From Eledone cirrhosa (lineage: Eukaryota), in NCBI GenBank assembly GCA_964016885.1, contig OZ024753.1, positions 36,952,001 to 37,016,000 on the forward strand: 64,000 nucleotides of DNA. The letters run 5' to 3'. How positions within the stretch are numbered: the first letter of the stretch is position 1; every line of letters starts with the position of its first letter. Positions 64 through 61,600 of this stretch are shown here, one piece after another. The translations under genes were made by a program, and so were the position numbers. The notes under the pieces are model-generated. The model was not told the origin of the DNA. It searched no databases and was given only the letters and a program-made list of their open reading frames with translations.

Positions 64-496
64 TACGGATAGTGGCTGCAAATTCACCCATTTACCTAGG
101 ACAAAACGATCTATCCCCACAAACAGCCACCACCATAATACATACTCTAATTTAACACCAACACAACCACCAATAACTCAAACAAGGAATCCACAAATCT
201 GCCGTTTTTCCCTGCGAGACAGATTGTGTTTAGACCGGGATTGTCCCTTTACCCATCTCCCGGGGACCCGTCGGATAAATGAAAATAAAATTAAAAATAA
301 AAGCAAAAACAAAAACCATAACCTACATAAAAATAACCACTACCACAGTCACCAACAGTCTTCTAAACAGGAAACTTCTTCCTCTTTTTTAGCCATAATG
401 AATCTGGCAAAAGAACTGGAAAAAAACATTCGAGCTATCACCCAGCACCACCCTCCACTATCACCCCACTGCACAAACTCCCATTGCTGCCATTAA
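64..496 (+). CDS. LINE ORF1 C-terminal remnant (CCCH zinc-finger-like)
   Basis: CTDSGCKFTHLP and CRFSLRDRLCLDRDCPFTHLP; overlaps the ORF2 start by 13 nt. The ORF-track start at 23 is microsatellite. Confidence 0.65.
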
Positions 497-3400
497 CAAA
501 CAAACAAATTAACAACACACCAAAACAATTAAAACCATCCACTCTCGCCTCTACATTTTTGCTTAACGCCCAAGGCATCAGCCCTTCCACCAATACTCAA
601 AAATGGAAGATCAAATTCCTGGAGGACTGGATTGATGTCCATCCAAACCACATCCCTTTCTTCGTCCTCACTGAAACCCATCTCAGTAACCTCCACTTGG
701 AAGCCGAGGTGAAAGTGAAAAATTTCAAAGCCATCCGTGCTGATCGCGCTGGCAGAAGAAAGGGCGGAACTGCCATTTATGTCCATAATTCTTTCTCAAC
801 AGAGGCTATGAACATATTCACTAATGGATACTGTGAGGCAGTCACTGTATTCAGTCAAACCAACAACCTATTAGTAGTTGGGCTCTATAGGCCACCCCAA
901 ACGCCTGTACCATGCTTCAAGGAATGCCTCAACAGCATAAAGTGTTTCATCCAAGAGTGTCACCCTGACAACATCTTAATGATGGGGGACTTCAACCTCC
1001 CCGGAGTTGACTGGTCCACAAACACCCTGCCACCAGGTTCTTCTGCCTCAACCTCTGACAGGGAAGCTGTGGAATCGCTTCTTGACTTCATGGATGATTT
1101 CTTCCTATCCCAACTAGTGCTCGAACCAACGAGGTGCCACAAAAACGTCCTAGACTTAATTTTCAGCAATCACACTGACAATATCCACAATATTGCAGTG
1201 GAGAAAACTCTACTCTCTGATCATGACATGGTTCTCTGTGATCTGAGATTCCACCGTCCAATATACAAACCCAATGTCATTTCTCCTGTCCATCCGTTTG
1301 ACGCTATGGATTTCCACAATGCAAACTGGGAAGCGATCAGTCATGATCTTGCACATGTCGACTGGTCCTTCACGCACACTCATACACCCACTAACATCAA
1401 AAAGTCCTGGCAGACATTTGTGGACACTGTTACAAACATATGTGCTAAACACACCCCATTAAGAACTATAAACAAATCTAAGAGCAGAATCCCTAGAAAT
1501 AGAAAAACACTCATCAGAAAAATTAAGAGAACGAACAAAAAAATCAACAAGCTGAAATACTGTCAGCAGCAACACATCAACTTGACTGCCATTTCATCAC
1601 TAGAGATTAAAAAACATAACCTCCAAAACAACATAATGTCCCTCATCAACAATCAGAGAAGAGCTGAAGAGGCCTGGGCCATTGAGAAGATCAAACTCAA
1701 TCCCAAAGTGTTCTTTTCATTTGCAAAAAAACACAAAATCACTGGCTCTACTGTTGGCCCTCTAATTGATGAAAATGGCACTCTTCAAGACAATGCTAAA
1801 ACCATGGGTGAGATACTGCAGAAACAATACTGCTCTGTTTTCAGCAATCCTGATATGGCCGATCTGGGCTGTATCGGCGATGTTACTCCCCATTACACCT
1901 TATCGGACATAACGTTTGGCGCCCCTGATGTCTTGGCGGCAATAAAGGAAATCAAGCATAATTCAGCAGTAGGTCCCGATAGGTTCCCTGCTTGTGTCTT
2001 GAAGGCGTGTCAACACCAACTTGCTTCTCCTCTTGCCAATCTGTGGCGGAACTCACTGGATGCTGGATATGTGCCAGAAAACCTTCTATCCCAGTCTGTT
2101 GTCCCAGTTTTCAAAAAGGGAAACAAATCCCTTGCCGTGAATTACCGTCCAATCTCACTCACCTCTCATATCATTAAGGTATTTGAGCGAGTGGTGAGAT
2201 CGCGAATGACCCACTTCCTTGAGAGTAACAATATGCTGAACTCCAACCAGCATGGATTCCGTAATGGAAGGGATTGCCTGACGCAACTACTGCATCACTT
2301 TGATGACATTTTGAGAGCCTTGGGAGAGGGTTCCAACACTGATGTTATCTACCTTGATTTCAGCAAGGCCTTTGACAGGGTTGATCATAACATTCTACTG
2401 AGAAAGCTGTCCAATATTGGTGTCACTGGAAAGCTGCTGCAGTGGATCAAGAGCTTCCTGTCAAACAGAACCCAACATGTTGTAGTTGAGGGAGTCAAAT
2501 CAAGCCCAGCCAAAGTCAGTAGTGGAGTCCCACAAGGCACTGTGTTGGGCCCACTTCTCTTCATCATCTATATTAATGACATCACTGACATCATCAAACA
2601 CAGCAACATTAAAATTTTCGCTGATGATTCCAAGCTCCAAAAGGTCATCAATGGCGTGGATGACCGGATAAGCCTTCAGTCAGACCTACTGGCTGTTACC
2701 CAATGGGCAGAAAAGAACAACATGTTACTGAACGAAGACAAATTCGAACTGATCCACTTTGGAAAAGAGGATGCTCTGAAACTCCCGTACTCCCTTCCCT
2801 CCGGGGAAACTCTCGTGGCATCTAACAACATCAGAGACTTGGGAGTAACCGTGGACAGCAACATAAGCTGGACCACGCATATAAGCAGCAAAGTTGACAT
2901 GGCCCGCAGAATGTGTTCCTGGATCCTCAGAACCTTCCAGTCGAGAGATTCCCGCACCATTATCCTTCTCTTCTCTACTTTCGCCCGACCACACCTTGAA
3001 TACTGTTGTCCACTGTGGTCTCCCCACACGAAACAAAGTATCATGAAACTTGAAGCTCCTCAAAGGGCAATCACGAAAAAGATAGATGGCATGTCAGACC
3101 TTGACTACTGGGGTCGATTGGAAAACCTGAAACTTTACTCACTCCAACGTCGCCGTGAGCGTTATATTATCTGCATGATGTGGAAAATGTTCCATCATCA
3201 CTGCCCAAATGATGTTGGCATCGCCTTCAAGATACACCCAAGGCTTGGGCCCCGTGCTATCCGTCCCATTCAAAAATCTAAATCGCAACTCATAACAACA
3301 ATACGGCACAATTATTTCACCTCAATCGGCCCTGCTCTCTTCAACATCACACCAGGACACGTCAAAACAGAAACTGACCACACAAAATTCAAGAAGTCTT

Positions 3401-3504
3401 TGGACAAATTCCTCCAAGTAATCCCGGACAAACCACCCACACCCGGATATGTCTCCGCAAACAGTAATTCTCTTCTCGAATGGGCCATGGTGCCCAAATC
3501 CTGA
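484..3504 (+). CDS. LINE ORF2: APE endonuclease + reverse transcriptase (1006 aa)
   Basis: APE motifs LTETHL, GLYRPP, MGDFNL, LDLIF, SDHD; RT motifs [35 protein letters not shown]; CR1-type C-terminus [11 protein letters not shown]. Confidence 0.95.
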
Positions 3505-5310: not shown

Positions 5311-39498
<34,188 letters not shown>

Positions 39499-48869: not shown

Positions 48870-50018
48870 TCACAACACATGAATACTTTCAAAATTGTCT
48901 ACTGTAAATGTAGTTGTTTCCCATTGCAAGCCGTTCCCAGGAGGCTTGTGTCGAGATGGAAATAGAATGTGACGCCAAAAAGTTCTACCTTCAGTTAGGC
49001 CAAAGAATAATTTCCAGTTTTTGACAAAACCAAAATCATAAGGATTCACATAAGTCTGTCCTAATTTTTTAAGTCTTTTCCGTTCATTTTTATTAATGTG
49101 AACCTCAATGCTGGTCTCGGCACGGCTTATGAGACGTGCATGCCACAGAGAGAGAAGGCTAAGGGCTACAACACAACCAGATCCCAGGAAAAACACAAAA
49201 ATTATCGAATGATGATAAATCTGATCTGTAAGGGAGAGTTGGTTGAAAGCTTGGGTGGGAGGAGTTCGTTTCACAGAAGTTCCATTAGAGATAGCTATGT
49301 ATGTGTAACTTTTCTTTTTTGACACCCAGAACTGATAGGCGAGGTTAAGGGGATACAGTGCTCCGTGGAATACCACTTCCTTGCCGACATAGAAGTTATC
49401 GTAAAACAAAGGATAGAAGATAAAACATGCATACAGACAGCCAAACATCATGTAGGCCATATATAAAAAGAAATAACGATGATTGTAGTATCCAACACAG
49501 TTATTGAGCCACGGGCAATGGTGGTCCATTCGTAGAACACACTTCTTACAAACGCTGCAGTGGTGTGCTCTCGGAGGTTTCGGTGAAATACAACGCTTGC
49601 AGATGGATACCACTTCGGGCACAATTTGAGGTGGGTGACCCGGGTTCGTGCGGCACCCCATCACATAATTGAATACAGTGTTAATCAGCAACCAGTTCCC
49701 CAAAATAAAGTTCGGTAGGAACCAGTGCCAGCCATAAGAGAGGTAACGTGGTATCATGATAATATAAAATATGGCAAGACCTATGCTACACAAAACAAAA
49801 ACAACAAACATCAAAATGGGTCCCATGTATTTAGCAAAGTGGTCGACGATCCAGAATACAGGTTCCATGGCTGTTTCCAGAATTAGATTTGGGGAGGTGA
49901 AGGCGTTGTAACAGAAACTGAAATACATCAACTTGATAAGTTCGCATGTGGTGTTTAAAGAGGTTCCTAAGTTGGTTGCCCAGCGGCATATATTGATTCG
50001 CCATCGTAAGATTCTCAT
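48870..50018 (-). CDS. ZDHHC16: DHHC palmitoyltransferase, ZDHHC16-like, single coding exon (382 aa)
   Basis: DHHC-CRD CKRCISPKPPRAHHCSVCKKCVLRMDHHCPWLNNCVGYYNHRYF, hydrophobic segments, and ZDHHC16-typical EPVFWIVD, ETSIEVHINK and NPYDFG...NWKLF...FWRHILFPSRH. Confidence 0.92.
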   Translation of the reverse strand: MRILRWRINICRWATNLGTSLNTTCELIKLMYFSFCYNAFTSPNLILETAMEPVFWIVDHFAKYMGPILMFVVFVLCSIGLAIFYIIMIPRYLSYGWHWFLPNFILGNWLLINTVFNYVMGCRTNPGHPPQIVPEVVSICKRCISPKPPRAHHCSVCKKCVLRMDHHCPWLNNCVGYYNHRYFFLYMAYMMFGCLYACFIFYPLFYDNFYVGKEVVFHGALYPLNLAYQFWVSKKKSYTYIAISNGTSVKRTPPTQAFNQLSLTDQIYHHSIIFVFFLGSGCVVALSLLSLWHARLISRAETSIEVHINKNERKRLKKLGQTYVNPYDFGFVKNWKLFFGLTEGRTFWRHILFPSRHKPPGNGLQWETTTFTVDNFESIHVL

Positions 50019-53000
50019 ATTTGAAAGTTACGTTGACATTTAATATATAATAATACTAATGAAACGTTCATGACTACTCTGACAACCTCTAGTTAGAATC
50101 ATCGCCGTTTGCCATAACTGTTTTATTAAATTATTGCTTTGCTTTACTGTTATTGCTGCTGTTGTTGTTCGCATTATGTTCGTGTTTAAATTTAGTGCAG
50201 ATATTTTCCAATAGCTACTATTTTTTTCATAACTATATATATGTCCGTGTGTGTGTTTCTTTAAAGAAACTTGCAAATATCATTCACTGTATATATAATA
50301 GTCTCAAATTTCCGATATATTCACATCAAAAATAAATATAATAAAAAAAGAAACACCAGGAACTTATAGATAAACAAGCAGCTCAAGTTGCAATAGCAAA
50401 ATATATTTCATAAGAGAATCCTAAGTTCGATTACTTTCACCTTAAACATAAATCTTTCTTTTTCCCTTTTGTTAATAGGCGGTGGTAAGCATCCGAGTTG
50501 CTCGGATATGGATTCAACTGTCTCAACGTCCCTAATACAGAAACCATACTCACACAAAGATCTTAATTTCCAATATATAAATATATATATATATATATAA
50601 AGAATTCTTCGGTGGTTTTTGTTATCCAAATAAATTAATGGAATTGGTAGCAAGGCATCCGAGAGTCTGGAACATTTCTCAATAGAGAACAATTCTGGTT
50701 GCAGCCATTCAGTACAACCTTATCACAGTCCCCTCTACCGGCAACCACTCAAACAAGGCGGGTAACTCTAACAGAAATTCTTACTCTCAAAGTAGCGGTG
50801 TCGTCGTTGTTGTTGTTGCTATTGTTGGAAAAGACTCTCTGCTCCCGTATCAGGAGTTGTACTGTTTAGAATTTCTTCTTTTAGCTAAATCAGAGAGGAG
50901 GGTAGTATATACCATGTAGAGAAAGTAATTTGAAATCAGGTTTAAACAACAACCGAGGCGTAAAATGAAAATAATTTAAGATTACCGGAAGATAATTTTA
51001 AATAGGAGTTAGCGTGAAATCTTTACACCGGTGTATATGAAATTCACAACAACAAACATAGCATTGTTTCTAAATATCAATATTTCTTTAGCATAATAAA
51101 CTTACAAGAAATATTGAATCTTTAATCCTGCAATTGATTAATTAAAATTAATACACTTATAATCAGTGACACAAGAAAGACTATCCAACAAGAAATTGTG
51201 GAAGGGGAGAGAAAGAGAGGAGGATAAACAAACAGAAAACATTAAAGAGTGGACAGGCAAATCGTTAACTGAAATCTATAATCTGGCAAAGCAAACGCGA
51301 CATATGGAGAAGCCTGGAGCACAGTTTGTGATAACTGCGCTCCTATCAAGAACTGAAGGTCTACGATACGAGTCGTAAATTCCTGATCCATGAGAATAGC
51401 ATGAACGCCATGTAATCATAGTTGCTCCCCTCAACTAAACGTAGTCTTTATGCCTATCAACGAAACTATTAAATTCGAATAATAAACTACGATATATCAC
51501 TGCTTTTTACAAGAGCTGCGAAAGATTTATATATTTTTTAATTACTATCAACATTTATCAAGCTTTGTTATGTAAATAAAAACAAAACGAATCCTTGACT
51601 GAAAACTCAAGTAAACTATTGGGTTTATATTTTTAACTGTTTGTCATTGAATTCAATTTTTAATTATATAGCATTTGTAGTTGGTTTGTTTGTGTTTTTC
51701 TAACCAAAAATTGGTACAAAATTCATATTCAGGATCCCGCTTAATAATATAAAAGATGGTATATCTGTGTTTTGATAATAAATAAATGGATATGAATAAG
51801 AGAATAGTAAGTTCTTACCTTTATTCCCGTTGCTATTGATTGACCAAGAATTGATACCAATATATATATATATTTAGTTCTAAATGAAGCAATTGTGATT
51901 TAAAAACAATGCAAGCCCAGTAGAAGAAATAGTGTAAGACTATATGAATGTAAAAGAACGTTAAGGGTAGGTAACTGCTAATAACCCCAGTTAATTGTCC
52001 ATCCATTACATATATTGTTGAAGTTTTAACAATAAACACAACATTGGGCGTTCTTTCTGTTTTTAAGTAGGTAGCAATCGCACTACATAACGAAAATGAA
52101 GAGAGTTCTATACGTAAATTCCGAAAAAAAACTCTTAGACGTTCTTTCGTTTTCAGAAGACAGCAATCGCCGTACATAAAAACGTGCCACAGTTAGGCGT
52201 TCTTTCGTTTTAAGTAAATAGAAATCGTCATATATTCTAGAATGAAAATGAATTGTACCTGATTGATTTGTATAAAGTGAATTCGATTGATTTATTAGTA
52301 AGAGAACTAGCCCAATGGTTTTCAGAGACCCAGGTCATATTCCCTACATGCGATCCCAGATCTCCTCAAACACCGCCCGCTTTATTAAGTTAACACAAAA
52401 TGCATCAATCAGTCACATACTACAAGGGTTGCCGAATTCAATGCACTGGCAGCGTTACCGCTTTTGGGAGAGATTTAGGCGTTGGAACAACCAATCACCC
52501 TCGCGGACATCACTCGATACCTCGATAACGCGAGCCGCCAACGATGACAAGAGTTTCGTTGTCAGCGGCCCAACTCCTCTAAATATGATCTACTAGGTTT
52601 TCACTCTAGCATCATATTAACACGAACAAGCTTTTCAAACTTTATTCGGTGTGTAGTCAAGTGGTTTTCAGAGACCCAAGTCTCCCCACCCAGACAATTT
52701 TGAATTATCATTTAGTGATCTTTCACTCGAGCACCATAATAACTCTTACCTCAAGAAATCGCATTAGCAAGACTATACGACAGCACTACAGCTGACATTA
52801 TAATTTTGAGCCTTGAATTTAGTTTACTGTAAATGTTCACAACGAACTGTTTTCTAGTAAGGATCATTATTATTTTATTATTAAAAGTTTATTTAATAAT
52901 AAAATAATAATGAAATTATTGTGTAAAGTGCTCAGGTGCACTACAACTTTTGATTCACTAAACTTGGTTTTAAATATATATCTTTTTTAAATCCTAGAAT

Positions 53001-56655: not shown

Positions 56656-58615
56656 ATGGAGGCAAATGGCTTAGTGGTTAGAGCATTGGCCTTGCAATCG
56701 AAAGGTTGTGAGTTCAATTCTCAGACCGGGTGATGTGTTGTTTCCTTGAGCAAGATACTTTATTTCACATTGCTCCAGTTTACTCAGCTGTAGAAATGAG
56801 ATGATAGGGACTGGGGTCTCTATCATTCCACTGCAAAGTGGTCGTGGAGGTGCCACGGCAAAAAAGCACCCAGCACTCACTGTAAATGAGGTTGGTGTTA
56901 GGAAGGGCATCCAGCTGTAGAAATCATGCCAGAATCAGTTCCCATCCCACCCTTGCAAGCAGGGAAAAGTGGACGTAAAATGAAATGATGACACATATAT
57001 ATGTATACCTGGCAAGAGGCTTCTTCACAGTTTTGACCAAGTTAGTATCAATAATAGTTAAGATGCTTGTTGTAGCCTCATTCCATGGTTCTTAACGTGT
57101 TTCTCTTCCATTTCACAGTCCTGAATACTCCTTATTTGTTGGAGACCTCTCTGATGATGTCGATGACTATGAACTCTACAGTGCTTTCTCTAAATGTTTC
57201 CGCTCCTGCAGTGCTGCAAAAGGTAAGAATTCATAGACCTTCCTTCCTCATTTATCACATACAACTTCCACTTCCAATATATATTACGCAGTAATACAGA
57301 AAACCCGTCTTGCCTAAGTACAAAGCGAAACTTACAGTCAGTAGGCACCTCTTAATCAAATATGCACCCCCTTCCCACTACCCCATCAACACCATCCCTT
57401 TCTCTGTAAGGTTATGTTGGTACCACAACATCGAGTCCTAAATAAATAAGGTTGTGTAGGTGTCACGACAAAAAAACACACAGTCCACGCTGTAATGTGG
57501 CCGTGTAGGTAACACGGTAAAAACCTCCCAGTTCACACTGTAAACGTGGTGGGTGTTAGGAAGGGCATCCAGCCATAGAAAACCCGCCAGACACTCCCAT
57601 ATGAACAAGACAACCATTCTTGCCTCAAGTGGGAAAATTCCCGTCTAAACCCATGCTAGCGTGGAAGATAGACGTTAAACGATGATGATGATGATGATAT
57701 GCCTATTTTCCATGCTAGCATGGAGAATGGATGTTGAACAGTAATGATGATGATATACCGCGAACTAGCTGCAATCGATTGTTTGTCAGAGATTTCCCCG
57801 TTAGAAAATTTATTCTTAAAGCTTGCTAGATTTGATTATGTATATGGTTAATTATGCTAATTAGAAGAAGAAATAGTATATATTTTAATATCTGATTGAT
57901 TCTATAGACATGATTTATGATATAATGCTCTGATTTTTTGATTTTAATTTATTAATTCTTCATTGAGCTTAAAAGTGAACAGTTGCAACACATATATATA
58001 TCTTTGATTTAATTTAATTTAATTTTATGTATGTGATAACCTCTATATTTAATAATCTCCCTATTGGTTGAGATTAAATTTGGCAATATATGGCTACGCT
58101 TTCTAGCAGTAAGCCTACCCGCCGTAAGCAACCAATCACACGCTTTCTCTCTGGCTGGTACACAGCTACATAGCGATCTTAGCCATTTTTGAATCTAAAT
58201 TTGGCTTGGTCGGTTTGAGAAATTAAATGTCTGATTCTGAGTTTGTCTCCTGATGATTCCTAACTCAAGGCAAATCCATATTATTTGGATGTCCTAAATA
58301 AGGAAGAAACCATGGTAGAGATATAATTACGGTATGTGCGCATTTCTTCTAAGTTTAATTTTACTACTAATTACGTGCGGTTGACGATATATTTGATCGG
58401 ATTCTGCATGCTGCCGAAGTATTTGATAAATAGTGGAACGGAGTTATCGCGAACTAGCTGCGATCGATTGTTTGTCGGAGATTTCCCCGTTAGAAAATTT
58501 ATTCTTAAAGCTTGCTAGATTTGATTATGTATATGGTTAATTATGCTAATTAGAAGAAGAAATAGTATATATTTTAATATCTGATTGATTCTATAGACAT
58601 GATTTATGATATATG

Positions 58616-58648
<33 letters not shown>

Positions 58649-61600
58649 GTGTGTGTGTCATCATCATCATCATCGTTTAACGTCCATGTTCCACGCTTGC
58701 ATGGGTTTGGACGGGAGTTTTCCCACTTGAGGCAAGAGTGGTTGTCTTGCTCGCATAGGACTGTCTGGTGGGTTTTCTACAGTTGGATGCCCTTCCTAAC
58801 ACCAACCACATTTACAGTGTGGGACTGGGAGGTTTTTACCATGTTGCCTACACGGCCACATTTACAGCGTGGACTGTGTGTTTTTTTGTCGTGACACCTA
58901 CACGATCTCATTTGTTTCGGCCTGGATGTTGTGGGACCAACATAACTTTATGTGTGTATGTGATTCAATAAGTATAATAATGTTTTTCTTGTTTTGTTTT
59001 AGTGGTACTTGACAACTACGGCCGCAGTAAAGGCTACGGGTTTGTTCGATTTACCGATGAAAGTGAACAGCAGAAGGCAATGTTTGAGATGCAACATGTC
59101 TCCATTGGTCGGAGACCAATCAGAGTTAGTTTAGCCACACCTAAAAGGTATGTTTCAACTGTCTATACACATCGTTATCATCATCATCAATTTACGTCCG
59201 CTTTTCCCCGCTTGCAAGGGTGGGACGGATCCTGTTCAGCGCAGCATCTCTCCACTTGTCATGGTCCTTCGTCATCTCCTCCATGAGCTTTAGCGATCTG
59301 AGGTCTGCTCTCACCACCTCCGCCCATGTTTTTTGTGGTCTTCCTCTACTGGGAATGAGTAGATATGTCATTAATGATGTAAAAAGGATGATGATGATGA
59401 TAACTTTAGTGATTGTAATTGAAATGAAAATTAAGGAAATATGTCTCTATTAAAAGTAAAATATTACTTCATGTTAATATAAAGAATGGTGTTCTCAAGA
59501 ACAGAGATGCTATAAAATAGCTTATAATTCATCTAATTTCTGTATATCATCATCTTCATCATTTAACGTCCTCTTTCCCTGTTAGTAAAAGTTGAACGGG
59601 TTTACGTTGACCAAGTCAGTACTGAAGTAGGGCTACTCTCCTCCCAGACAAGCTGAAGGGTCTGTATCCTGCCTAACATAAGTCATATTAAGTGTAGAGA
59701 TGATGTCTTTTGACACAAACTAAAAGGTCCTCTTAGCCCCTTGTTTGGCAAGCTTTCTACAGCTGGGTGGCCTGCCTAATACCAACCACTTTACAGGGTG
59801 TACTGGGTGCTTTTATTGTGTATATCACCAGCACTAGGAAGGTTGTCATGTCCTTGACACAACTAAAGGGTCTTCCCAACCCTATGTTTGGTAAGCTTTC
59901 TGGCTGGATGTCCTCACTATCACCAATCACTTAACAACATGTATATATTATATTAATTTATGTAATTTCTGTATTCTTCTCTCAGACCTCCTCCACCAGA
60001 CGTTCCTGGTACACAGAGTGCTCAACAGTACAGCCAGTATTACCAACAGTACCAACAATATCAGTATTACCAAAGCTGGTCAGCCTATTCACAGTATTAC
60101 AGTCAGTTCGGATACCCATATGCTGGAGGTTACACCACTGACCACGTACAAGTAAGTCACACATCTTACTTCTTCATGTAACAACCATAAGGTTGTGGGT
60201 TTCATTCAAGGACATTTTAGCATGTTGTTCTTGAAGCAAGATGCTTCATTTCACATTGAGGCTTATCATGATCAGATTAGGGCCCCCCAACCAAACTCAG
60301 TTTATAACAACCTGTCAAATCCATGTCAGAATGGAAAGTAGACCTACAATGATGGGGATGATGATGATGGTTATTGTCAGAATTGTTAGAGCTGACAAAA
60401 TATTGTCATTATCATAGGGTGGTGGATTTAACCAACTTCCCCCTTCCCTTCAAATTGCTGGCCTGGTGACAAATGTAGAAACAATGATCATTATCGTAAT
60501 CATCTTTATGGTCTGAGTTCAAATCCCGTTGAGGTTGACTTTGCCTTTCATCCTTACGGGGTCGATAAAATAAAGTACCAGTAATGTACTGGGTAATTGC
60601 TGGCCATGTGCCAAAAGTAGAAACAATTATCATAATCATCTTCATTATCATCATCAACATTATCATTACAATTGTTTTAAACCAAAGTTAACATCAGTAA
60701 TATTTTCTTCACTAGGACTATTATGATCAAGGCACAGATGAAGAGATGGAGATGTTAGAAGGTTATTATTATTATTTTATCTTTAATATTTTTTTAACAT
60801 TCAGTAATTATTTTATTCTACAAAGCAGTTTATACAAAAGCAAATCACATTATTAACTCTTTAGCATTTACATTACTCTATATTTACTATTGTATTTTTG
60901 TGGTAAAGGCTTTACCTCACATAATATTGAATCTATGAGATTTTGATATTATTTACTTTGAGAACAATACCTTAACACTAGCTTGAGTGGCCAGTTACAG
61001 CTGGATTGAACAGAAAGAGGTGAGGGAATTTTGGCTGGATACAACCAGTTTAAATGTTAAAGGGAAGAAAAAGAAAAAGAATTAAGCAATAAAAGAAAGG
61101 GAGATGTGAAAGGACAGTCCCTACATCTCTGTCTGAACGGTGTTTCAGCTGTGCCCCTCAAACCAAAATGGCAAAGGCATTACTGCAAAGAATGCTCAGA
61201 GACACCTGCTGTTGTAGCAGCCACCCCACCTAACAAGGCTCCTTATTTTATCTTTAATATTTTTAATGAAATACACTTTCTATGTTTTAATTATTTTGAA
61301 AATAATCATGAATTTGTGGGGGATTTAGTAAAAAAAAAATATATAATAAACAGTTTCATTTATTTTTATATCAAGCTGATGTTTAAAATATAATGTATTA
61401 GACAAAATGTATTTTTACATAGGATTTTGAGTGAAGATTTTAACTTTAAATATGAACACTTTAAAAGAGACAGTTCTGGATCCTAAAACCAGGGCAGTCT
61501 CAGGAGTGTTAATGTATGGTCATTGTTCATTGTTTTATTTACCATTTGTTTGTTTTGTTTTGTTTTACCTCAAACTGAAATTTTAGGGTGACTTTAGCAG

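Follow-up and report, generated by a model that had tools for sequence, protein, structure and literature searches.

An 858-bp sequence in an intron of the octopus gene TRNAU1AP is most probably a single 1.24-unit insertion of a multi-copy, non-coding 689-nt family, and that family is likely to be a non-autonomous derivative of a Penelope-like element (PLE). It lies in a 64-kb stretch of DNA, hereafter the window. A sequence-only reading of the window had proposed a non-autonomous, hammerhead-bearing retroelement with a monomer of about 689 nt in a partial tandem of PLE type. Copies of the unit in public sequencing runs support that proposal, to which the present analysis adds a predicted rod hairpin, an 8-bp homology at the ends of the insertion and a candidate intron. 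Elements of this kind are already published (PMC7229834; bioRxiv 10.64898/2026.07.22.740005).

Structure of the insertion in TRNAU1AP intron 5

The exon upstream of the insertion matches SECp43/TRNAU1AP, and four coding exons precede it. The exon count and the protein match bear out the original placement of the element in intron 5 (57223–59002). The host features and the parts of the insertion are as follows.

57119–57222, plus strand: TRNAU1AP (SECp43) coding exon 5 (PDB 2dhg, E 1.5e-7; exon count; splice sites)
57424–57697, plus strand: common SINE-like repeat of about 300 bp with an (ATG)n tail, the left neighbour, outside the element (aligns with the right-hand copy and with a copy at 8590–8875; additional copies found)
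57750–57757, plus strand: ATGATATA, putative left copy of an 8-bp target-site duplication or priming microhomology (the 8-mer recurs at 58606–58613)
57756–57924, plus strand: repeat copy 1, a 5′-truncated upstream partial unit starting at the apical loop of the rod (repeats; family reads cross the junction)
57925–58613, plus strand: one complete 689-nt non-coding monomer (repeat spacing and frames; ring closure in run X4)
58445–58613, plus strand: repeat copy 2, whose end is the 3′ end of the insertion and the presumed starting point of reverse transcription (last 8 bases ATGATATA)
58614–58659, no strand: (TA)n/(TG)n target microsatellite
58658–58950, minus strand: second copy of the SINE-like repeat, inverted, the right neighbour (repeat alignment)
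59003–59147, plus strand: TRNAU1AP coding exon 6, RRM (Pfam RRM_1, E 6.3e-8, on frame 58981–59148; splice sites)

Direct comparison confirmed 166-bp repeats with two differences, 689 bp apart and amounting to about 1.24 monomers, as first described. Positions 57759–57924 correspond to 58448–58613, and the differences (57773 A/58462 G and 57788 A/58477 G) are both CG to CA in copy 1. With 3 bp added, the repeats measure 169 bp with three differences, and the whole element spans 1.245 units. The monomer is 32.5% GC (224 G+C of 689, counted on the equivalent interval 57756–58444), below 45%. Among the 36 stop-to-stop frames of at least 20 aa that overlap 57700–58700, the longest within the unit has 63 aa and no Pfam match, and the scan of ORFs and Pfam domains found in the unit no ORF for the reverse transcriptase (RT) and GIY-YIG endonuclease expected of an autonomous PLE. 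The earlier statement that no ORF is recognisable therefore holds. Promoters and splice sites were judged against the standard consensus motifs; a candidate promoter (CCAAT box at 58130, GC box at 58118) was dropped, the CCAAT consensus occurring 5 times in the window against 9.8 expected.

The two flanking repeats, which we take to be SINE-like, were considered as terminal repeats of a larger element and rejected as such, being copies of a common repeat of about 300 bp with a third copy at 8590–8875. At 57407–57697 and 58658–58950 they form inverted copies, about 90% complementary, that enclose the element; they would pair as a long double strand in TRNAU1AP pre-mRNA, making a candidate context for editing or back-splicing. 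Head-to-head with TRNAU1AP and about 3.8 kb away, a single uninterrupted 385-aa frame at 48870–50027 (minus strand) encodes the palmitoyltransferase ZDHHC16, 86% identical to Argonauta hians ZDHHC16, its best named match, which places the host among the octopod cephalopods.

No further copy of the element was found within the 64-kb window, which contains two other hammerhead inserts. An unrelated one at 8895–9310 lies between (TA)n tracts, directly behind a copy of the same SINE-like repeat, and has 152-nt inverted arms (95%) with two opposed type I hammerheads (cores at 8983, minus strand, and 9119, plus strand), an inverted 5′ structure typical of PLE insertions. The third motif (core 30086) lies on the minus strand at 29980–30310, in an insert of about 320 bp between (TA)n tracts, with AATAAA just past the cut site and no long ORF after it. 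Both are unrelated to the element and indicate that hammerhead inserts between (TA)n tracts are common in this genome; with three distinct ones in 64 kb, their total is likely to be very large. Two long LINE ORFs also lie in the window: at 367–3504 an endonuclease-RT frame stays open for 1045 aa, and at 6508–8418 a 636-aa RT frame has a weak match to a PHD finger. A tRNA-like match at 24131–24188 (Rfam tRNA, 31.2 bits) has similar letters at about 56690–56730; judged by these letters, both are probably heads of a tRNA-derived SINE.

Copies of the unit in public sequencing runs

Eight of the 11 listed public runs contain the stretch wholly or partly; three of the eight derive from a single sample and include roughly half of the 76 words. 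Four of the 11 runs (X1, X4, X5 and X9; not X2, X3, X6–X8, X10 or X11) were placed on 57716–58444 at 85% likeness, and small shares in X6–X8 (0.04–0.08) were left unused. The results below draw on the best 40 of 132 variants, 20 of 183 loose ends and 18 of 829 pieces. With a 40-nt SINE-like flank included in the counts, 789 of 16,285,364 contigs match in X1, covering all 30 bins, and 1991 of 12,467,656 reads match in X9, a run of RAD reads. The X1 contigs are spread over a wide range of likeness (160 at 99% or more, 170 at 95–99, 261 at 90–95 and 198 below 90). In X9, 326 molecules begin at 58407, a GCATGC site that is presumably the restriction site used for the RAD libraries.

Junctions between units were also recovered. 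In X9, 218 reads in 10 joint rows cross from 58435–58444 into 57756–57775, with at least 10 distinct junction strings (12 of 21 rows); since one diploid locus permits two, many loci must be represented. The element is thus a multi-copy family with divergent copies, although the sampled organism may differ from the species of the window. A simple single-copy local duplication, the counter-explanation raised alongside the original proposal, is refuted by this abundance of divergent copies, the X1 contigs and X9 junction forms alike. Family reads pass through 57756 as an internal position, which identifies the intron copy as 5′-truncated. Its description as young stands only in part: the repeats differ by just two CpG-type changes in 166 bp, but the copy departs from the X1/X9 majority at about 10 of 37 rows (among the best 40 of 132).

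In X4, contigs 9, 10, 13 and 14 (249, 276, 90 and 164 nt; depth 4.0–4.9) overlap by about 30 nt and close into a ring whose length is about 659 nt and for which 43 letter differences are listed. Closure at this size leaves no space for an ORF and places an ORF-less unit in an independent sample. A ring of 31-mer contigs arises from any partial tandem and proves neither arrays nor circular RNA; given short contigs and 150-nt reads, the X4 closure and the X9 junction reads fit arrays and partial tandems alike. X5 contributes two contigs, of which a 151-nt one spans 58279–58413, including the cleavage site, with 15 differences.

Hammerhead motif, predicted rod hairpin and candidate intron

Three further features overlap within the monomer.

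58244–58323, plus strand: type I hammerhead motif of dimer type (motif scan; intermolecular stem III of 8 bp, −13.2 kcal/mol)
58319–58582, plus strand: predicted imperfect rod hairpin of about 265 nt, 99 pairs (21 G.U), apical loop 58447–58454 (folding)
58332–58596, plus strand: candidate retained spliceosomal intron, G/GTATGT ... TCTATAG/ACATG (sequence only)

Stem I of the hammerhead pairs TGTCTC (58244–58249) with GAGATA (58318–58323) over 6 bp including one G.U, the core consists of CTGATGA (58250–58256) and GAAA (58306–58309), and stem II is formed by the 5-bp TTCCT/AGGAA (58257–58261/58301–58305). Stem III is the palindrome ACCATGGT (58309–58316), followed by a GUA site with a predicted cut at 58317/58318. 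None of 3000 dinucleotide-shuffled monomers produced an equal motif on either strand. The stems, core and GUA site are as first described, with qualifications: pair 10.1-11.1 is a non-consensus U-A in place of the conserved G-C (Cervera & De la Pena 2014, PMC4209133), and Rfam gave no hammerhead match at gathering score, and among 14 matches at E ≤ 10 no ribozyme.

Stem III is predicted to have only 2 bp within the monomer as against 8 bp between two copies. A short palindromic helix III marks dimer-type hammerheads (PMC4209133), and the motif was assigned to that type on these grounds. A lone intron copy with a single dimer-type hammerhead is unable to release a monomer by itself; with 1.24 units and one hammerhead, the locus falls short of the two complete units of the 'active' rule in bioRxiv 10.64898/2026.07.22.740005. 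Elsewhere in the family, A prevails at 58257 (5291 of 5874 in summed X1 contig depth, which is not a copy number, and 79 of 136 X9 reads), and A>C at 58301 is common (3025 of 6953 in summed X1 depth and 46 of 155 X9 reads). Both would disrupt stem II pairs unless variants beyond the best 40 of 132 compensate for them. The hammerhead fold lies 3.0–4.2 kcal/mol above the predicted minimum. Eight of nine Xenopus retrozyme dimers assayed showed no cleavage (bioRxiv 10.64898/2026.07.22.740005). Together, the missing Rfam match, the U-A pair, the stem II variants, the fold penalty and the non-cleaving Xenopus dimers make function of the hammerhead doubtful.

The rod, a single long imperfect hairpin in prediction, starts at the predicted cleavage site. 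On the plus strand it folds with −80.8 kcal/mol (z −5.58, 0 of 150 shuffles) and on the minus strand with −35.7 kcal/mol (z −0.59, 37 of 150 shuffles). Folding on one strand only led us to reject a decayed DNA inverted repeat (MITE). When the arms were aligned without a preference for G.U, 24 G.U faced 7 A.C (p 0.003), the middle of the alignment being out of register. Among the best 40 of 132 variants, 11 of the 37 in the element fall in the rod, eight at paired sites, and seven of these eight keep or restore the pair, 57838 A>T being the one listed variant that breaks one. The seven transitions at paired sites in that set all retain pairing, with a chance p of only about 0.03. These results point to a real, strand-specific RNA structure that the models predict to be maintained across the family, most likely a structured 5′-UTR or intron region of the ancestral PLE pseudo-LTR (pLTR).

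Substitutions in the family are asymmetric. A>G exceeds T>C at 20 places to 7 in X1, 16 to 5 in X4 and 31 to 10 in X9 (p 0.003, 0.007 and 0.0001; the runs share places and are non-independent), and G>A against C>T is non-significant across runs (p 0.13–0.33). Coleoids show heavy ADAR editing, and ADARs have a neighbour preference. The preceding letter in 17 purine-transition rows is C in 5, T or A in 9 and G in 3, with no ADAR-like bias, and the 21 G of the rod G.U pairs show no 5′-G depletion. ADAR editing as a source of the G.U pairs or the A>G bias is accordingly unsupported, and since the neighbour context lacks the ADAR pattern, the asymmetry is explained more simply if a conserved RNA hairpin tolerates exchange between A-U and G.U.

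The base of the rod can, in prediction, sequester the 3′ strand of stem I. A strong switch between rod and ribozyme was nonetheless discarded, because including the rod adds little to the hammerhead fold penalty, which goes from 3.0 to 4.2 kcal/mol. The 5′ end of the insertion (57758) coincides with the start of the apical loop (equivalent to 58447–58454). Clustering of 5′ ends at the rod apex is not visible in the placed reads, X9 RAD reads starting within the 5′ arm and being blind to the apex.

The candidate intron is nearly coextensive with the rod, its donor being paired inside the rod in the predicted fold, and it is followed by an ATG at 58599, 14 nt ahead of the 3′ end of the insertion. 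As the monomer holds four donor-like sites, the intron is a lead only; no spliced joint occurs among 10 joint rows, from runs not recorded as RNA. A retained 5′-UTR intron is known at the pLTR in Penelope and Chlamys-3 (PMC8557442). Read in host sense, the acceptor candidate at 57907 and the donor candidate at 58332 would delimit a 424-nt cryptic exon (57908–58331) with the whole hammerhead inside. A sense-strand ribozyme motif and cryptic splice sites within the intron might affect TRNAU1AP, a gene of the selenoprotein pathway; an effect of a lone dimer-type hammerhead copy is unlikely, and the insertion is probably a dead end with small influence on the host gene.

On a bolder reading, which we consider unlikely, the family would be an active octopod PLE passenger that forms circular RNAs of about 689 nt, its G.U-rich rod of 265 nt acting as a spliceosomal intron that masks itself. 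Equally speculative is its mechanism, in which the rod would bury the 5′ splice site and the stretch before the branch point and acceptor, compete with stem I and offer its apical loop as a stop to copying. If true, the family would be a small, testable model for PLE intron retention through an RNA intermediate and for switching between cleavage, splicing and copying on one RNA.

Proposed insertion mechanism and relation to known elements

The ends of the insertion suggest how it arose. ATGATATA occurs at 57750–57757 and 58606–58613 and once inside the monomer at 57917, and (TA)n follows directly on position 58613, where the insertion has its 3′ end. Among the 20 of 183 X1 loose ends, 13 contigs carry a variant that enters ATATATA directly after ...GACATGAT, and one variant ends about 10 nt upstream; like a peak of summed depth at 57816–57990, it bears on whether copies share a 3′ end with an optional short tail, and both permit other interpretations. 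We take the matching ends to reflect target-primed insertion where (ATG)n meets (TA)n, with 8 bp duplicated or serving as microhomology; against this reading, the 8-mer occurs 11 times on the plus strand of the window. The partial tandem with its 5′-truncated upstream copy and the AT-rich, (TA)n target are features of the Penelope-like pattern.

We propose that a PLE reverse transcriptase and endonuclease, whose involvement is presumed, would copy the family in trans into TA-rich DNA. Tandem source loci would be transcribed into multimeric RNA, in which the hammerhead, with its 2-bp palindromic stem III, would cut chiefly as a dimer, a lone copy cutting poorly or not at all. The PLE endonuclease would nick where (ATG)n borders (TA)n, releasing an end that could prime at a matching AUGAUAUA, 296 nt 3′ of the cut site. 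Copying would then run through one full unit across an uncut or re-ligated hammerhead site and continue for 166–169 nt more, stopping at the apical loop of the rod. For the cDNA to pass that site, the template must have been an uncut multimer or a ligated circle, or the enzyme must have jumped between templates. We favour an uncleaved multimer, at roughly even chances, over a circular monomer, which takes a smaller but substantial share, and a template jump, which has an outside chance; the preference follows from the weak appearance of the ribozyme and from the use of unprocessed RNA by an anole PLE in vitro.

PLEs already described provide precedents: they show partial tandems, 5′ truncation, (TA)n bias and non-autonomous head-to-tail elements (PMC8557442). 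The anole PLE cuts AT-rich DNA, begins reverse transcription within the RNA 3′ of the hammerhead, uses chiefly unprocessed RNA as its in vitro substrate and can insert without hammerhead cleavage; it primes at a site non-homologous to the cut DNA, unlike the microhomology proposed here (PMC11167929). Penelope LINEs are abundant in coleoids (PMC8967140).

The strongest rival is a classical non-LTR retrozyme cycle, in which array multimers are cut to 689-nt monomers and ligated into circles that undergo rolling-circle reverse transcription. It shares the family identity with the preferred explanation, differing in its requirement for a circle, and we hold it to be possible, if tentative. The passage of the cDNA across the cut site fits such a cycle, as does the possibility that the repeats were identical at insertion, both differences being CG to CA in copy 1 and G standing at 57773 in 398 of 406 X9 reads. 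The circle is predicted to fold well (−171.7 kcal/mol, z −4.3, 0 of 60 shuffles), and circles have been demonstrated for coral, mussel and axolotl retrozymes (PMC7229834). However, the monomer exceeds those demonstrated circles (about 170–400 nt; PMC7229834), the hammerhead is weak and possibly decayed, an uncleaved multimer accounts for the same DNA, and anole PLE insertion in vitro is independent of hammerhead cleavage (PMC11167929).

The likeness to animal non-LTR retrozymes is otherwise close, and these have themselves been claimed to be non-autonomous PLE sequences (Li, Clavereau & Pollet 2026, bioRxiv 10.64898/2026.07.22.740005). In both, the unit is non-coding, low in GC and multi-copy (PMC7229834; bioRxiv 10.64898/2026.07.22.740005), each monomer carries a single type I hammerhead whose stem III is short and palindromic, self-pairing is extensive and a dependence on PLE enzymes is proposed. 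Non-LTR retrozymes are known from a mollusc, the mussel (PMC7229834), and 689 nt, although larger than the mussel paper's circles, lies inside the 51–972 bp consensus range (bioRxiv 10.64898/2026.07.22.740005). Unlike retrozyme dimers and multimers, the octopus locus has 1.24 units and one ribozyme motif, and its rod base is predicted to compete with stem I, whereas most metazoan retrozyme circles are predicted with a free ribozyme (PMC7229834).

EN+ PLE pLTRs (Penelope/Poseidon, Neptune; PMC4209133, PMC8557442, PMC11167929) share with the octopus element a 5′-truncated partial tandem, a hammerhead in the repeated region, a 3′ end inside the unit 3′ of the hammerhead, an AT or (TA)n target and a possible retained 5′-UTR intron. 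In contrast to EN+ PLEs, the unit lacks an RT/GIY-YIG ORF, the 8-bp priming-site homology is absent in the anole element, and the candidate intron lies 3′ of the hammerhead, whereas in D. virilis Penelope the intron extends only as far as helix I, on its 5′ side. No autonomous PLE with matching sequence turned up in the viral, metagenome and prokaryote collections searched. The unit could also be a mere pLTR remnant of a 5′-truncated autonomous, ORF-bearing PLE, with no non-autonomous family of its own; the order of hammerhead, candidate intron, ATG and 3′ end resembles a PLE pLTR followed by an ORF start, and PLE copies are mostly truncated (PMC4209133). We think this quite unlikely, since past the ATG the sequence goes directly into the AT-rich region before the next hammerhead, with record 1 of X1 and records 10 and 11 of X4 running unbroken across 57924/57925, and ORF-bearing truncated copies cannot close into a ring the size of that in X4 without internal deletion. 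Non-autonomous Chlamys elements such as Chlamydomonas MRC1 (PMC8557442) are likewise ORF-less PLE passengers with pLTRs and head-to-tail insertions. Chlamys elements are green-algal, mostly without canonical hammerheads, and tied to autonomous families by 3′-end similarity (PMC8557442).

Highly unlikely, in our estimate, is an origin from an endogenised viroid-like replicon, or from an RNA intermediate whose ADAR A-to-I edits reverse transcription fixed in the G.U-rich rod. The long rod, the hammerhead, the closed unit and the predicted sequestering of the stem I 3′ strand by the rod base would suit it, as would the significant excess of A>G beside the non-significant G>A. The unit, though, has no minus-strand hammerhead (other ribozyme classes were checked via Rfam only), the rod is unstable on the minus strand, so that structure is not found in both polarities, and the A>G asymmetry lacks ADAR-like neighbours and is equally predicted by tolerance of A-U and G.U exchange. 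Pattern and exact-word scans of viral, metagenome and prokaryote collections found no relative of the unit: a gapped core pattern gave 10 metagenome and 8 viral matches, none with hammerhead stems (by eye) or wider similarity to the unit, and exact 23- and 21-mers of the element had 0 matches in prokaryote genomes and viral contigs.

Least probable of all is DNA-level spread of a hammerhead satellite (by unequal crossover or circular DNA), or a 169-bp local duplication, with no RNA step: local amplification of pLTR-derived units to tandem repeats is allowed for in bioRxiv 10.64898/2026.07.22.740005, but this is a lone 1.24-unit intron copy set between an (ATG)n tail and (TA)n with 8-bp end homology, the start of its repeat is an internal position in family reads, and both the strand-specific fold and the surplus of A>G relative to T>C suggest that a single RNA strand is under constraint.

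We found no description of a cephalopod or octopod family of this kind in a literature search whose bounds left most subscription papers, Repbase, Dfam and supplements outside, and the accessible portions of the two retrozyme papers (PMC7229834; bioRxiv 10.64898/2026.07.22.740005) cover no cephalopods. As the likely derivative of a PLE, the family chiefly extends hammerhead-bearing PLE passengers to octopods. Its value is that of a compact natural substrate: the ends are clean, the priming site is defined, the ribozyme motif is of dimer type and the long hairpin is strand-specific. With such a substrate one could test directly whether circles or multimers serve as templates and how introns are retained when PLEs retrotranspose.
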